Positions 35,001 to 44,000 of a stretch of 64,000 bases of DNA are shown here, piece by piece (within the stretch, counting starts at the first letter, position 1; each line of letters opens with the position of its first letter). Made by a program: the position numbers. Origin of the DNA: Escherichia coli (GTDB lineage: Bacteria; Pseudomonadota; Gammaproteobacteria; Enterobacterales; Enterobacteriaceae); the NCBI RefSeq assembly GCF_030013595.1, contig NZ_CP122768.1; one strand, written 5' to 3'.

Positions 35001-38000
35001 AACCATCAGCAAGAGGATCATTGGTTTTTCTATGTTTAATCTTTTTTATCCGAAGCCGGTCACATTTATGGCTTGATAAATACCTTTGTTAAAACTCACT
35101 TTTGTGTATTTCTCTCAAATAATCCCCTGGAAATTATGCCGGGAGATTATAAAGTTCAGGATCATTCATTAGCAAACCATTGCTGCCCCACTCCCTGGGG
35201 CTTTAAATCTCTTACGATTCACCATTGCAGGCGTTTCAAATGCGTATCAACCTGCCACACTCCCCCACACCAGTTGCCCTTTATGGAACGTCGCCGTTCT
35301 CGGCGAGATACGCGCCACCGCCTCGGCGGAACAGGAGGCGTCCACCAGCACAAAACTGGCATCATCCTGCGCTTTGGGCCACACGCGCTCGCCTTTTTCG
35401 TTGAGCGGCAATACATCGCCAGTGGCTAAAAACAGCGAGCGGGAGAGGTTCTGTTCGTTAGGACGAATATAGAGCTGCGCGTACAGATTGGCTTTTTCCA
35501 GCATGTCGCCCAGGCCGTAAGGCGACCAGTGGTCGATAACGCTGTCGGTGCCGGTCATCACTTTTACGCCTTTGTCGTGCAACTGTTTGAGCGGCATATG
35601 CAGCGTGCCAATCGGCACCGTCGAGGCGATAGAAATTTGCTGCGCCGCCATCCGGTGCGCCAGTTCATCTACCTGTTGCTCATTGAGCGTTGCCAGCGCA
35701 AAGGCGTGGCTGATGGTCAGCTTGCCCTTCAGTTGCGGCGTTTTCTCCACCGTTTCAACCATATAATTGATGGCTGCCACGCCTGCCGGAGTGGTTTCGT
35801 GCAGGTGAATATCAACGCCTTTGTCGTAGTCCAGCGCAATCTGGAACATGGTGTCGAGGGATTTTTCCATCGCGCCATCAACACTGGTCGGGTCCAGCCC
35901 GCCGACGTAATGCGCCCCCGCCTGCATCGCTTCGCGCATTAAGGGTTCTGATTTCGACAGCAGCAAACCGTGCTGCGGGAAGGCGACAATTTCACACTCG
36001 AAGCCCGCCTGACGTCGCGCCAGAACCGCCTGCAAATTTTGCAGATTTTTCAGGCCGGAAACCGGTTCGATATTGCAGTGGCTGCGGGCAATGGTAGTGC
36101 CTTTCGACTGCAATAAATCAATCAGTTTTTCCGCCCTTTCCTGAGTGTACGGTTGCAACTCCGGCAGCATTTTCTGCTCGAGTTTGATCATGTCCTGGAT
36201 GGTGGTGCCTGCCGGACGATTGAGCGAGCGCCACGGCCCGCCGTAGAAGGTTTTGTCGAGATGAATATGCATGTCGCGGGTGGTGGGCAGCATCAGCTTA
36301 CCGCCAGCGTCATAGTGCGGCAGCGTGGCGTCCGGATGCTGATTGTTCTCGCGCAGTGCAACAATTTTGCCGTTCTGAATTTCCACAGTCTGGCGCGCCG
36401 TGCGGGTCTGCACCGCCACGCCATTTTCGTAGTCAAAACCGGTTTCCAGCAACACGTTGTCGAGATAGTAGTGCGGGTCAGTGATTTTCATGGTGTTATT
36501 CGCGTCGCAGTGGGTTGTGCCAGAGACTGCCGCATGGGCGAGCGGCACAGAGGTACCAAACAGCGCGGCGGCGGTGACCATCTTACCGCTCTGGCTCAGA
36601 AACTCACGGCGGCTATTGCTTTCTTTCATCTTACGTCCTTACGTTTTAATAATATGGGTGCCCGTTTCACCGCGCAGCGCCGCAGGCAGGCATTCCGGCG
36701 TGGTGATAATCACTTCTTTACCGCCCTGCTCCAGGAACGTCAGGCTGGCGATGATTTTTGGCAACATGCTGCCGGGTGGGAAATGCCCTTCCTGCATATA
36801 GCGGGTCATGGTGGCAATATCCACCCGATCCAGCGCCTGCTGCTGCGGTTTACCAAAATGAATACACACTTTTTCCACGCCCGTGGTGATCACCAGAATG
36901 TCGGCGTGAATTTCGCGAGCCAGTAGCGCGGTAGAGAGATCTTTGTCGATAACCGCGTCCACGCTTTGGTAATCCCCCGCTTCACTGCACACCACCGGAA
37001 TTCCACCGCCGCCCGCGCCAATCACCACAAAACCTTGTTGGATCAGCGCCTTAATGGCAGGTGCTTCGACAATACGTTTCGGTTCCGGCGAGGCGACCAC
37101 GCGGCGATAGCCCCGTCCGGCATCTTCAACAAAACGCCAGTCAGGGTTTGCCTTTTGTAATTCGTCACGCTGGCTTTCACTGAAGAATGCGCCGATGGGC
37201 TTGGTGGGATGAGCAAAACCCGGATCGTTTTTATCCACTTCCACCTGAGTCACCACGGTGACGGCTTTTTTCTCACCGTGACGCGCCAGTCGGTTATTCA
37301 GCGCCTGTTGGATCAAGTAGCCAATGCCGCCTTGCGTATCCGCCACACAGTTCGCCAGCGGCGTTAAGGGCAGCCCTTCGCGCTCGTGGGCAATCTCCGC
37401 GCGGCGTAAATCCAAACCGACCTGCGGTCCGTTGCCGTGGGTCAGCACAATGTCGTAATCGGAAGCCAGCATTTCCAGCACCGTATCGGCGACGGCTTTC
37501 ACCGCCTCCGCCTGATGCTCAATCGACTGGCTGGCGTTATCTTTGATAATGCTGTTGCCACCAATGGCAACGACCACAAGTTCTTTCATGTTGTTATGTC
37601 CGCTACAGTGGGTGATGGGGTTATGACCAACGCCAGACTGCCTGATGCGCTACGCTTATCAGGCCTAGAATTCTCGTGCCATTCGTAGGCCGGATAAGGC
37701 GTTCACGCCGCATCCGGCAGAGACAACGCGCACTTTGCAGGTCAGACGCCGTAACGTTCGCACCAGCCAAGAATGGCTTTTTCGAAGCAGGCGAATGGTG
37801 GATGCACAATGCCCGCGCCAATCATGCCGATGCCCGCATCTTTATGAGCGATGGCGGTGTTGATCACTGGCAGAATGCCGCTACTGCCCACGCGGGTGAT
37901 GTCGATTGCCGACGGCACGCCCATAAAACCGAGCAGCGGAATGGTGACGTTGGGGTTTTCACCGAGAGTGATTTCACGCATCTGGCGAGAGAAATCGATA

Positions 38001-41000: not shown

Positions 41001-44000
41001 AGCGCCAGACCTGTTAAATAATCGTCGGCTGATGGCGTAAGGCCAATCCCTAAGCCCATCATACTGGCGACCGTTGAGGCGATATTTTGTTTATCGTTTA
41101 CGGCCTGAATAACTGCCCGTCGTTTACTATGTAATTCTTTATTTAACGCCTGATAAAACGGATTATCGCCGCAATAATTAAACAGGGTTTCATTTTCCCC
41201 CAGGTGCTGATGAATAATGTCATGCCACTGTTGCCAGGCGATAAGGTGAAAATTCACAGCGGCCATTTGCAAGGTTGGGGACAGCCAACGCAGGCAATGA
41301 CTCATCTCTATATGAAGATGTTGACCAACCGTAATGCCTTGATCGTCAAACTGAACCTTATCACCATGCCGGAACAGACCATCAAAGTGAGTGAGTGCCA
41401 ACCGACAACTGTTTGGCGCATTGTCGTACTCTTCACAAAGCAGCGTCAGCAACTGCTGGCGGGCCGGAAGTGCGATATTTACCGCTCTGGCAAAGACCTG
41501 TTCAACCTGTCCTTGCCCCCGCTGCGCCAGAAAATCAGCATCCGCAGTTAGCGCCCACACACACCGTCTTTCTGGTGTGTTGATAGCAAGCCTCCCGGTT
41601 TATGCACCTGCGGCAATCAGTAACTGTGCAATCTCTTCAAAGCCTCGTTCCCGCGCCAGTTCCAGCGGCGTTTTGCCATATTTATCCGTCATGTGCGGGC
41701 TGGCACCGTGTTCCAGCAATAACTGGACAATCGCCTGCTGTTTAATCCCGCCATCATTAAGCACGATTGCTTCCAGTAGCGGCGTCCAGCCAACATGGTT
41801 GGTCTGGTTAACGTTAATCTCCGTATGCGCCAAAAGCTCTTTTACAATACTTAAATGGCCTTTTTCACAGGCAGGCGTCAGGCCGACGCCGCCAAAACGG
41901 GTGACGCAATTAAGATCGGGTTTAGCCGGTAAAATAATTCGTAGTAGCGTTAAATCATCGTTCAGACAGCTAATTAAAAAAGGATTTAAACAGGTATGAT
42001 CTTGCTTATTAATATCCGCTCCGGCATCAATTAATGCCTGAACGCAAGCATATTGCTGATATAAACTTGCCAGCGTAATTGCCGTTTTCCCCTGACGATC
42101 GCAGGTATTAATATCGACACCCAGCGCAAGGCAGGTTTTTACTTTATCGATATCACCCTGTTGCGCAGCCAATAAATAGTCGGCAGGTAGATTTTTTATA
42201 GTCATTCACATTCCCCTGGTTTTTGTGGCTGTTTTCGATGAATTGAGAATAGCAACGATAATCTGATAAAAGAACCCGCTTAAATTTAATTCGCCGTATT
42301 TCGCCTTTTTGTTGAATGATGTTCAACAATCTTTTCGCAGTGTGCGGTAGTGCAATATTTGTTTCTTTGACCCGATACCCTTTCACTCAATCAGGTTTTA
42401 TTTCTCTATAGTCTGCACATGTAAGAGTAGCTTTCGTCCATGTCTAACCAGAGGGGAACAAGATGAACGGACTCACGGCAACGGGTGTCACCGTCGGTAT
42501 TTGTGCAGGGCTTTGGCAGTTAGTGTCTTCACATGTCGGGCTCTCTCAGGGATGGGAATTATTAGGAACCATTGGCTTCGTCGCCTTTTGCAGTTTTTAT
42601 GCCGCAGGCGGCGGTAAATCGGGGTTTATCAGAAGTCTGGCGGTTAATTATTCCGGGATGGTGTGGGCGTTTTTCGCCGCGCTGGCTGCCGGCTGGCTGG
42701 CCTCGGTGAGTGGATTGTCCACGTTCTGGGCGAGCGTGATTATGACTGTACCCTTCTCGGCGGTGGTGGTCTGGCAAGGACGTTTCGGTTTATTGTCTTT
42801 TATTCCCGGAGGCTTTCTCGGCATGACGCTATTTTTTGCCAGCGGGATGAACTGGACAGTGACATTACTGGGTTTTCTGGCGGGTAACTGCGTGGGGATA
42901 ATTTCAGAATATGGCGGACAAAAATTAAGCGAAGCGACGACTAAACGCGACGGGTATTAAAAGTTATTCAAAAATGATTATCTATCTTTAACCTATACCT
43001 CTACAGTCATGGCTGGAGAAATTCATATTCGATAATGGCGGGAATGGTTTAATGAACTCAATTTTTACCGAAGAGAATCTGTTGGCATTTACTACCGCTG
43101 CGCGTTTTGGCAGTTTCAGTAAAGCCGCAGAAGAGTTGGGTTTAACCACTTCCGCCATTAGCTACACCATCAAGCGAATGGAAACAGGGCTGGATGTGGT
43201 GCTGTTCACTCGCAGTACCCGAAGCATTGAGTTAACGGAGTCCGGGCGTTATTTTTTCCGCAAAGCTACCGACCTGCTGAATGATTTTCACGCCATCAAA
43301 CGCAGCATCGATACTATTTCGCAGGGTATAGAAGCACGGGTGCGCATTTGTATTAACCAACTGCTTTATACGCCCAAACACACCGCACGCTTATTACAGG
43401 TACTGAAAAAGCAGTTTCCAACCTGCCAGATTACCGTGACGACCGAAGTGTATAACGGCGTCTGGGATGCGATTATTAATAATCAGGCGAATATTGCTAT
43501 CGGCGCGCCCGACACACTGCTGGACGGCGGCGGCATTGATTACACGGAGATTGGCGCAATTCGCTGGGCTTTTGCTATCGCCCCGGATCACCCATTAGCC
43601 TTTGTGCCGGACCCCATCGCCGAAAGCCAACTGCGTCTCTATCCTAATATTATGGTGGAGGACACCGCGCATACGATTAATAAAAAAGTGGGCTGGTTGC
43701 TGCATGGGCAGGAGTCGATTCTGGTGCCAGATTTCAACACCAAATGTCAGTGCCAGATTTTAGGTGAAGGAATTGAGTTTTTGCCGGATTACATGGTCCG
43801 CGAGGCGATGGAGCAATCCCTGCTGGTTACCCGCCAAATCCATAATCCGCGCCAGGATTCACGCATGTTACTGGCGACCCAGCACTCTGCCACCGGTCAG
43901 GTGACGCAGTGGATTAAAAAACAATTTTCGCCAAATGGCATATTAACGGGGATCTATCAGGATTTACTGCATCGGGAGAATTAATCGCTGCCAACCTCCC

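Follow-up and report, generated by a model that had tools for sequence, protein, structure and literature searches.

The yahDEFGIJ cluster of Escherichia coli as part of a candidate YahB-regulated catabolic operon with an AllFGH-like subunit set and a predicted twin-arginine-exported deaminase

The yahDEFGIJ gene cluster of Escherichia coli was examined in a window of 64,000 nucleotides, the whole stretch of contig NZ_CP122768.1 (assembly GCF_030013595.1) that was analyzed and to which positions refer unless another sequence is named. Positions 35000 to 42500 of this window are chromosomal and 100% identical to E. coli strain HCP5S3_I2. Between 35247 and 42205, six intact, full-length open reading frames (ORFs), yahD-E-F-G-I-J, were found on the minus strand, with exactly the limits that the initial annotation had given them (Table 1). 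The gap between yahD and yahE is 39 bp, yahE and yahF overlap by 11 bp and yahF and yahG by 1 bp, while 152 bp separate yahG from yahI and 9 bp separate yahI from yahJ; the earlier description of a co-directional, partly overlapping six-gene cluster was thus borne out by the ORF limits, the strand, and the E/F and F/G overlaps. The flanking genes are yahK, ABC-transporter genes, yahC, and yahB, with no all genes among them, and an Rfam scan of positions 30000 to 46000 found no RNA family. The functional unit exceeds the six genes, adding yahB, the operator/promoter region upstream of yahD, and yahC.

Table 1. Features of the yah locus, with positions in the window and lengths in amino acids (aa)
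Feature	Position	Strand	Description
yahD	41600-42205	-	201 aa; ankyrin repeats (Pfam Ank families, E 1e-27); predicted cytoplasmic
yahE	40697-41560	-	287 aa, GTG start; PF11392 AllH (DUF2877), 98.9 bits
yahF	39160-40707	-	515 aa; NCBIfam FdrA NF004760, 486 bits vs cut-off 433; CoA_binding and Ligase_CoA domains
yahG	37742-39160	-	472 aa; PF06545 AllG (DUF1116), 298 bits
yahI	36639-37589	-	316 aa; carbamate kinase PRK12352, 646 bits vs cut-off 266
yahJ	35247-36629	-	460 aa; amidohydrolase PRK06846, 716 bits vs cut-off 447
Coding region of the YahJ twin-arginine signal peptide	36531-36629	-	Residues 1-33, SRREFL ... AHA
Two inverted repetitive extragenic palindromic (REP) elements (bacterial interspersed mosaic element, BIME)	37639-37718		Occupy the yahG-yahI gap
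Putative extended -10 TGCTATTCT of the yahD promoter	42246-42254	-	Block conserved across 12 genera
Conserved box CGGCGAATTAAATTTAAGCGGG	42275-42296	-	Candidate LysR-regulator activation site, from the 12-genus alignment
Dyad ATTGTTGAA-N5-TTCAACAA	42309-42330	-	Candidate YahB recognition site
yahC	42463-42960	+	DUF1097 small membrane protein, PF06496; divergent from yahD
yahB	43052-43984	+	Annotated as LysR; likely operon regulator

The initial annotation had described the cluster as paralogous to the allantoin-linked genes and as carrying the same domain set (FdrA, DUF1116, DUF2877, and carbamate kinase). Pfam and NCBIfam matches together with pairwise comparison upheld this domain set. The paralogy to allFGHK is real and spans 25-46% identity: in the homology comparison, which was run pairwise against the K-12 counterparts, YahF was 39% identical to AllF, YahG 46% to AllG, YahE 25% to AllH (E 6e-11), and YahI 38% to AllK. 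The link of the domain set to oxamate and carbamoyl-phosphate metabolism has since been given a biochemical basis (PMC11326118, PMC9843812): purified AllF-AllG-AllH is an oxamic transcarbamylase (OXTCase), which interconverts oxalurate plus Pi and carbamoyl phosphate plus oxamate (PMC11326118), and AllK (YbcF) is the catabolic carbamate kinase of anaerobic allantoin breakdown (PMC11326118, PMC9843812). These papers do not mention the yah genes. The earlier observation and its interpretation are sound and not new, as the genes and their paralogy were already catalogued; public annotation reflects the paralogy as well, with RefSeq naming YahE an 'oxamate carbamoyltransferase subunit AllH family protein' and YahG a 'YlbE family protein'.

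YahE, YahF, and YahG represent all three OXTCase-type subunit families above the Pfam or NCBIfam cut-offs and are encoded by adjacent, overlapping genes. As in the AllFGH and AllK system (Kim & Kim 2022, 2024), three adjacent genes of the same families with tight or overlapping junctions are followed by a carbamate kinase gene. However, the yah order is H-F-G ... K and the all order F-G-H-K, the boundary between F and G is shifted by ~40-50 residues, and the yah type adds an ankyrin protein, a deaminase with a twin-arginine translocation (Tat) signal, a LysR regulator, and, outside E. coli, a permease with 7+7 transmembrane (TM) helices. Orthology of YahE, YahF, and YahG to AllF, AllG, and AllH, judged by a common subgroup and an allECD neighbourhood, was not found. 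The boundary shift is visible in YahG residues 12-53, which align to AllF 513-554 (E 1e-4) and to FdrA model positions 509-553; F proteins of 514-516 aa and G proteins of 471-476 aa in the yah-type clusters examined mark the yah type, and by these alignments the shift is a shared derived character of it. In Zophobihabitans entericus, a single 817-aa ORF joins the AllH-like and FdrA-like subunits (L074:3320-5773), being either a genuine fusion or an assembly frameshift. The F/G boundary shift, this E-F fusion ORF, and the overlapping junctions suggest that E, F, and G form one enzyme, as AllFGH do. YahG matched PDB 3clq (E 5e-195), while the predicted model of YahE was confident (pLDDT 95) and had no structural relative in the PDB, so that it gives no mechanistic help.

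For comparison across species, we used one genome per species in a scan based on the YahJ alignment, which gave 80 loci, compared the proteins of the window with these loci by tblastn, and added individual homologue look-ups. Identities were calculated with yah-type proteins of Serratia, Aeromonas, Pasteurella, Janthinobacterium, a ColV plasmid, and the Firmicute Brevibacillus. Among these orthologues, G proteins were 72-90% identical to each other and 45-47% identical to AllG, F proteins 64-86% versus 37-40% to AllF, and carbamate kinases 50-93% versus 35-39% to AllK. The ankyrin protein, which has no All counterpart, retained 54-85% identity across Gamma- and Betaproteobacteria and Brevibacillus, while the AllH-like subunit (25-52% among yah-type proteins versus 19-25% to AllH) was the sole fast-evolving one. 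On these identities, the yah type is a distinct, horizontally mobile orthologue group and not a recent E. coli duplicate of the all genes.

The same values bear on the alternative that YahEFG and YahI are a second oxamic transcarbamylase and kinase acting on oxalurate, an isozyme set for purine and allantoin breakdown to which YahJ would feed a precursor, e.g., an imino analogue. Such an isozyme set would share the three-subunit architecture plus kinase, and results from an allFGH deletion strain, in which oxamate formation was restored 16% by an allGH plasmid and 7% by an allFG plasmid (Table 3 of PMC11326118), leave room for weak cross-talk; this partial rescue, on which the authors do not comment, could be read as YahF or YahE weakly standing in for the missing subunit. 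However, single deletions of allF or allG abolished oxamate formation in the presence of intact yah genes (PMC11326118), and in vivo the yah genes thus do not take over from allF or allG. The identity to the All proteins (25-46%, against 64-90% among yah-type proteins), the cluster's own regulator, ankyrin protein, permease, and deaminase, and the absence of linkage to allantoin genes in the loci examined also argue against it, and we regard a second oxalurate-cleaving set as unlikely.

YahI can be assigned to the carbamate kinase family by its full-length match and motifs. It aligned to the Pyrococcus furiosus carbamate kinase 1e19 over residues 3-314, i.e., at full length (E 5e-83), and its alignment to carbamate kinases keeps the GGN, HGNGPQVG, TKP, IDKDL, and GSMxPK motifs, while its score against the arcC equivalog TIGR00746 (346.7 bits) lies narrowly below the cut-off of 358.25 bits. 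A carbamate kinase gene always adjoined the yah-type F/G genes in the clusters examined.

The proposal that YahJ is a Tat-exported enzyme gained support from a conserved twin-arginine signal and a full CodA/AtzC catalytic set. Within residues 6-33, the N terminus of YahJ (MKESNSRREFLSQSGKMVTAAALFGTSVPLAHA) contains an SRRxFL twin-arginine motif (SRREFLS) together with a hydrophobic core and a cleavage site of sequence AHA; in 9 orthologues from 9 genera, R7, R8, and F10 were invariant, and the Tat motif was also present in the YahJ homologues of Shinella and Pasteurella. YahJ has been listed as a predicted Tat substrate (PMC7549933). Its closest solved structures were the AtzC-type 6nbo (E 4e-44) and 2qt3 (E 3e-30), followed by CodA (1e-16 to 1e-20). 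The catalytic set H121, H123, Q219, H275, E278, H308, and D362 was invariant in the 9 orthologues and could be matched position by position, with the roles of the CodA and AtzC residues taken from published work (PMC4577212, PMC12828455). Thus, the metal ligands of the HxH motif (H121 and H123) correspond to CodA H61 and H63 and AtzC H60 and H62, the metal-ligand histidine H275 to CodA H214 and AtzC H217, and the metal-ligand aspartate D362 to CodA D313 and AtzC D303. The catalytic histidine H308 corresponds to CodA H246 and AtzC H249, the intermediate-stabilising glutamine Q219 to CodA Q156 and AtzC Q160, and the stacking tryptophan W368 to CodA W319 and AtzC W309.

Other positions set YahJ apart from one or both of these enzymes. 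The residue after HxHxD is lysine in YahJ (K126), as in AtzC (K65), versus T66 in CodA; the proton-shuttle position is E217 in CodA and H219 in AtzC, and YahJ has both residues, H277 and E278; and Ser363 takes the place of CodA Asp314 and AtzC Asn304. The Tat signal of YahJ is found in neither CodA nor AtzC. YahJ scored below the cut-offs of the curated cytosine deaminase models (NF005748, 103 versus 438 bits; NF006685, 82 versus 483; NF005759, 70 versus 403), and CodA, its closest paralogue found in the window, was 26% identical to it; codA lies with codB at 15734-18266 on the minus strand, 18 kb from yahJ. Judged by its residues, which include the HxH, His, and Asp ligands of a mononuclear metal site, YahJ is a competent deaminase of the CodA/AtzC cluster (amidohydrolase superfamily subtype III) with a specificity of its own.

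Five architectures were distinguished among the loci. In type A (Citrobacter, Yokenella, Serratia, Buttiauxella, Atlantibacter, Providencia, Proteus, Budvicia, and Zophobihabitans), a divergent yahB is followed by yahD-E-F-G-permease-I-J; type B (Enterobacter, Lelliottia, Leclercia, Huaxiibacter, and Aeromonas) is the same without yahE; and type C (Escherichia, Pseudocitrobacter, Kluyvera, Raoultella, and Klebsiella spallanzanii) has divergent yahB and yahC beside yahD-E-F-G-I-J and no permease. Only yahD and yahJ follow the divergent yahB in type D (Erwinia, Cedecea, and Pragia), and yahJ stands alone in type E (Xenorhabdus, Photorhabdus, Shewanella, some Serratia, and Rhizobiales). The order D-(E)-F-G-permease-I-J was found in 46 of the 80 loci and the yahC variant in 10. 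The ankyrin protein accompanied EFG without YahJ in some loci and YahJ without EFG in others (Erwinia, Cedecea, and Pragia).

In Brevibacillus and Bacillus, yah-type ankyrin, AllH, F, G, and carbamate kinase genes stand with genes for a PucR-type regulator, an NCS1 permease of the cytosine/purine/allantoin type, and the 7+7-TM permease. These clusters encode a 150-aa zinc deaminase of the cytidine deaminase (CDA) fold, unrelated in fold to YahJ, whose top match was the guanine deaminase of B. subtilis (E 6e-31). The cluster of Bacillus sp. AFS031507 (L094) additionally encodes a 407-aa YahJ homologue (38% identity) that has no equivalent of the ~50 signal-bearing N-terminal residues and is predicted to be cytoplasmic, as well as a 387-aa ankyrin protein, 37% identical to YahD, between AllG and the kinase. 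One deaminase fold has thus been swapped for another in an otherwise conserved cluster, which indicates that the pathway has deamination as one of its essential parts. The earlier proposal that the cluster handles a carbamoyl- or ureido-compound still has the standing of a suggestion, strengthened by this cross-phylum linkage to deaminases of two folds and to permeases. In Shinella (L095), the gene for a Tat-signal YahJ homologue (44% identity) adjoins that of the 7+7-TM permease, with no EFG genes.

The contexts of lone yahJ genes (Serratia and Photorhabdus) showed no consistent partner except for one adjacent isochorismatase-family hydrolase. In this locus of Serratia sp. PL17 (L083:11451-12029), the lone yahJ homologue is followed by genes for the hydrolase and an AraC/DJ-1 regulator. 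A hydrolase of the same family occurs in the tkt1 island (GR29) of extraintestinal pathogenic and avian pathogenic E. coli (ExPEC and APEC), which carries a third FdrA/DUF1116/DUF2877 and carbamate kinase set with an NCS1 permease (PMC3349570, PMC12928451); there, the isochorismatase-family protein replaces YahJ and the ankyrin protein, and the island is not in this window. The isochorismatase link in these two settings is a hint that hydrolysis may serve as an alternative to phosphorolysis.

Signs of mobility were seen within E. coli and among its relatives. A second yah-type cluster is carried by ColV/IncF virulence plasmids of APEC and ExPEC (65 E. coli plasmids matched). In pAPEC-O2-211A-ColV (NZ_CP030791.1, 87785-96218; L093), it consists of a LysR gene and Ank-DUF2877-FdrA-DUF1116-permease-carbamate kinase, ends at a Tn3 transposase, and contains no yahJ. 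In Pseudocitrobacter (L010 and L011), YahF, YahG, YahI, and YahJ were 95-99% identical to the E. coli proteins, while YahD and YahE were 72-73% and 55-58% identical, respectively, a contrast that suggests a recent recombination breakpoint inside the cluster.

The permease that distinguishes most clusters from that of E. coli is a multi-helix protein of 516 aa (514-520 aa) encoded between yahG and yahI in 46 of the 56 species clusters that hold yahF or yahG, and it is 65-91% identical from Proteobacteria to Bacillales. It had no Pfam or NCBIfam match, and comparison of its profile with PDB sequences also gave no match. Its AlphaFold model (AF2; pLDDT 81.7) shows the 7+7-TM elevator fold of SVCT1, UraA, SLC26, and AZG1 (AzgA). 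The label 'nucleobase permease' was considered and dropped, since a UraA/SLC26-type fold does not separate nucleobase from anion substrates. In E. coli, the 152-bp gap between yahG and yahI is not an empty spacer; it consists of the two inverted REP elements, with a REP hairpin at 37685-37718, and a query including the gap gave a median of 31 matches per E. coli genome versus 1 without it. The former phantom gene yahH was annotated in this gap, and the K-12 gene has been described as 'yahH filled with REP23' (PMC11551758). No remnant of the permease was found in the window by tblastn. Because Beta- and Gammaproteobacteria as well as Firmicutes encode the permease within the cluster or beside it, its absence from the Escherichia type is most simply explained as a loss, and strains with the ColV-plasmid copy, which includes it, regain the permease absent from the chromosome. 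The yahC gene was present in 10/10 permease-less clusters and 0/46 permease-containing ones. YahC is possibly a candidate for uptake solely because the two distributions complement each other perfectly, a pattern that a small number of evolutionary events may have produced.

Another transporter lies directly downstream of yahJ, where an ASCH-domain gene and a four-gene ABC transporter of the ribose/AI-2 type occupy 30805-34982 on the minus strand. This block was found in 2211 of 5426 complete E. coli genomes (41%), and the others keep a ~70-bp remnant (about 34517-34586). The transporter was considered as the missing uptake system and rejected as a conserved part of the cluster, given its restriction to 41% of E. 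coli and the fact that it never adjoins yahJ in the 80 loci of other species; the latter identifies it as an insertion/deletion polymorphism outside the conserved cluster.

The regulator gene yahB, with 65-95% identity between genera, was present in 56 of the 80 loci, including those with only yahD and yahJ, and was divergent from yahD in every case. An alignment of the regions upstream of yahD from 12 genera, again including loci with only yahD and yahJ, revealed three conserved blocks: the dyad, a box (CGGCGAAT..TTTAAGCGG), and the extended -10-like element, where the block GTTGCTATTCTC, about 41 nt upstream of the yahD ATG, was nearly invariant. The dyad occurs nowhere else in the window, and 0 occurrences are expected by chance. 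A strict regular expression for it had a match upstream of yahD in 35 of the 60 loci and had no more than 55 matches in total in the 3.7 Mb of loci, both strands included. Dyad, box, and -10 have the arrangement of a classic LysR-controlled promoter, to which YahB would bind. In the accessible portion of the source, YahB appears as a ChIP-exo candidate and no targets are described. A consensus promoter/terminator scan gave fewer matches than shuffled sequences and missed the conserved yahD promoter, whose -35 is weak; on the coding strand, it found nothing resembling a terminator in the gaps. The spacing and these terminator-free gaps make co-transcription from yahD to yahJ plausible, and the authors of a ribosome-profiling study of enterohemorrhagic E. 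coli assume it for the yah genes (PMC4765031).

After loss of the permease and insertion of REP elements, the E. coli cluster might have become a decaying remnant, cryptic in the strict sense. The permease gene is gone and a REP pair sits in its slot, the ribosome-footprint signal in LB is low (PMC4765031), some ExPEC/APEC strains hold a complete plasmid copy with a permease, and a 2024 survey still places the yah genes among the uncharacterised y-genes, without a K-12 phenotype (PMC11551758). No paper in the literature library searched assigned them a function; what the searches returned was limited to lists of genomes, a screen for Tat substrates, and a survey of the y-ome. However, yahFG were present in 5039 of 5426 complete E. 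coli genomes (93%) at >=80% coverage and >=95% identity, and the six ORFs are intact. Between E. coli and Kluyvera, both of which are permease-less, dN/dS was 0.017 for yahG, 0.023 for yahB, 0.058 for yahC, 0.069 for yahJ, 0.071 for yahF, 0.074 for yahI, 0.15 for yahD, and 0.28, the highest value, for yahE. Comparisons with Citrobacter and Serratia gave similar values, with ranges over all comparisons of 0.02-0.12 for F, G, I, J, and B, 0.06-0.08 for yahC, and 0.01-0.03 for yahB. A yahF value of 0.79 against E. albertii NBRC 107761 (L012) was not used, as that gene has an in-frame stop or frameshift and is either a draft artefact or a pseudogene. These ratios indicate purifying selection on all cluster genes, including yahC, which always accompanies the permease-less form, and the promoter and operator are conserved as well. 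Additionally, deletion of yahJ in an ExPEC strain caused a mild competitive defect in mice (competitive index 0.70, p 0.02; PMC7549933). The selection, the prevalence, the full-length ORFs, and this small fitness cost in vivo argue against a dead remnant in E. coli, and decay toward one is improbable.

We read yahDEFGIJ together with yahB, yahC, and the upstream control region as a YahB-regulated catabolic operon for a nitrogen-rich compound, with a probability of roughly 0.55. YahJ would fold in the cytoplasm, be exported by the Tat system, and act as a metal-dependent deaminase in the periplasm, where it would swap an exocyclic or amidine-type amino group for oxygen and release ammonia, turning an acyl-guanidine or amino-heterocycle into an acyl-urea. 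The product would enter the cell through the dedicated 7+7-TM permease in most genera and by another route, possibly YahC, in E. coli. There, YahE, YahF, and YahG would form an AllH-AllF-AllG-like complex in which the ankyrin protein YahD probably takes part, and this complex would cleave a carbamoyl-N bond with phosphate to yield carbamoyl phosphate and an amide. YahI would then move the phosphate to ADP, giving ATP, ammonia, and CO2. The analysis shows the gene content and linkage, the homologies, the catalytic residues, the Tat motif, conservation, and purifying selection; we infer in which direction the flux runs, what kind of substrate is used, that YahD joins the complex, that YahB regulates the operon, and that the genes are co-transcribed. 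Guanine deaminase, AtzC, and the CodA-type deamination of creatinine or isocytosine convert an acyl-guanidine (N-C(=N)-N beside a carbonyl) to an acyl-urea. Conversion of an acyl-guanidine to an acyl-urea is proposed as the input since the alternative deaminases, YahJ and the CDA-fold enzyme, share this chemistry and oxalurate, the substrate of AllFGH, is itself an acyl-urea.

Several observations weigh against a catabolic operon of this kind. The literature reports no enzyme activity, inducer, or growth phenotype for any Yah protein. A periplasmic first step combined with cytoplasmic later steps needs an importer, E. coli is without a dedicated one, and the modeled fold of the permease found elsewhere leaves nucleobase and anion cargo undistinguished. 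No ring-opening hydrolase is encoded in the cluster, so that the product would have to be an acyclic acyl-urea from the outset, undergo spontaneous opening, or have its ring opened by YahEFG itself; no precedent exists for any of the three. Full OXTCase activity in E. coli needs AllH (PMC11326118), and yahE is missing between the ankyrin gene and yahF from the clusters of the Enterobacter type (Enterobacter, Lelliottia, Leclercia, and Huaxiibacter) and of Aeromonas (loci L026, L029-L033, L035-L037, L040, L044, L064, and L005). Finally, the Janthinobacterium cluster and the ColV-plasmid copy lack a deaminase and many species keep yahJ alone, which indicates that the deaminase and transcarbamylase modules are separable and can work independently.

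The proposed catabolic operon resembles the arginine and agmatine deiminase (ADI and AgDI) pathways, a comparison that rests on established pathway knowledge. In each case, an ammonia-releasing first enzyme is followed by phosphorolysis to carbamoyl phosphate and a carbamate kinase, with a transporter in the ancestral cluster. However, the yah transcarbamylase does not have the ornithine transcarbamylase fold, as none of the six proteins contains an OTCace domain; the first enzyme is an amidohydrolase or CDA-fold protein instead of a guanidino-group-modifying enzyme and is predicted to be periplasmic in Gram-negatives; and the transporter has the UraA/SLC26 fold, whereas ArcD and AguD are of the APC type, and no dedicated transporter is encoded in the E. 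coli cluster. A bolder version would make Yah a third deiminase-type pathway of substrate-level phosphorylation, with extracytoplasmic deamination of a cyclic acyl-guanidine, direct phosphorolytic opening of the cyclic acyl-urea so formed by YahDEFG, and the ankyrin protein as an obligatory fourth subunit. We hold this version to be doubtful, and its candidate inputs, all host- or diet-derived, are equally so: creatinine, guanine- or isocytosine-like bases, ammelide-like triazines, and oxidised-purine fragments. If it were true, it would represent ATP-yielding ring cleavage without a hydrolase, in contrast to the ATP-consuming hydantoinases.

The database name of YahF raises the further alternative that it is a true NDP-forming acyl-CoA synthetase and that the cluster acts on an acyl-CoA and not on a carbamoyl compound. 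YahF has CoA_binding and Ligase_CoA domains, a fold like that of the alpha subunit of succinyl-CoA synthetase (SCS-alpha; similarity E 7e-18), and a match to PDB 3dmy (E 2e-81). However, the GHAGA phospho-histidine loop of 2yv2 aligns to a His-free region of YahF, and AllF, also an SCS-alpha-like subunit, is likewise without the loop; no ATP-grasp domain, and hence no ATP-grasp subunit, was found by Pfam in the cluster proteins. Purified AllFGH is a transcarbamylase for which no CoA requirement is reported (PMC11326118). The missing loop and ATP-grasp partner make the name 'acyl-CoA synthetase' unlikely for YahF, and with a carbamate kinase gene always adjacent, an acyl-CoA pathway is highly improbable. 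Carbamate kinase is reversible, which would allow a synthetic direction in which YahI makes carbamoyl phosphate and YahEFG carbamoylates an amide to an acyl-urea metabolite; however, carbamate kinases beside transcarbamylases in catabolic clusters (arginine deiminase and allantoin) run towards ATP. Although the OXTCase reaction can likewise run both ways and its published assay measured synthesis (PMC11326118), the Tat-signal deaminase, the uptake-type permeases, and the LysR/PucR-type regulators form a catabolic context with no biosynthetic or export genes, and synthesis has very little probability.

Of complete E. coli genomes, 93% hold the yah cluster, which is also found on ColV virulence plasmids and in many Enterobacterales associated with the gut, the urinary tract, or insects; its genes nevertheless still belong to the y-ome. 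This analysis contributes a candidate regulator with its operator, the loss from E. coli of an ancestral permease, alternative deaminases by which the class of substrate is narrowed down, and the mobility of yah-type clusters. The candidate promoter/operator, the permease-bearing sister species, and the two alternative deaminases provide comparative handles on the system. If the proposed mechanism is true, the newly discovered AllFGH class of transcarbamylases would have a second substrate, and enteric bacteria would have a further route to ATP and ammonia from a nitrogen-rich compound.

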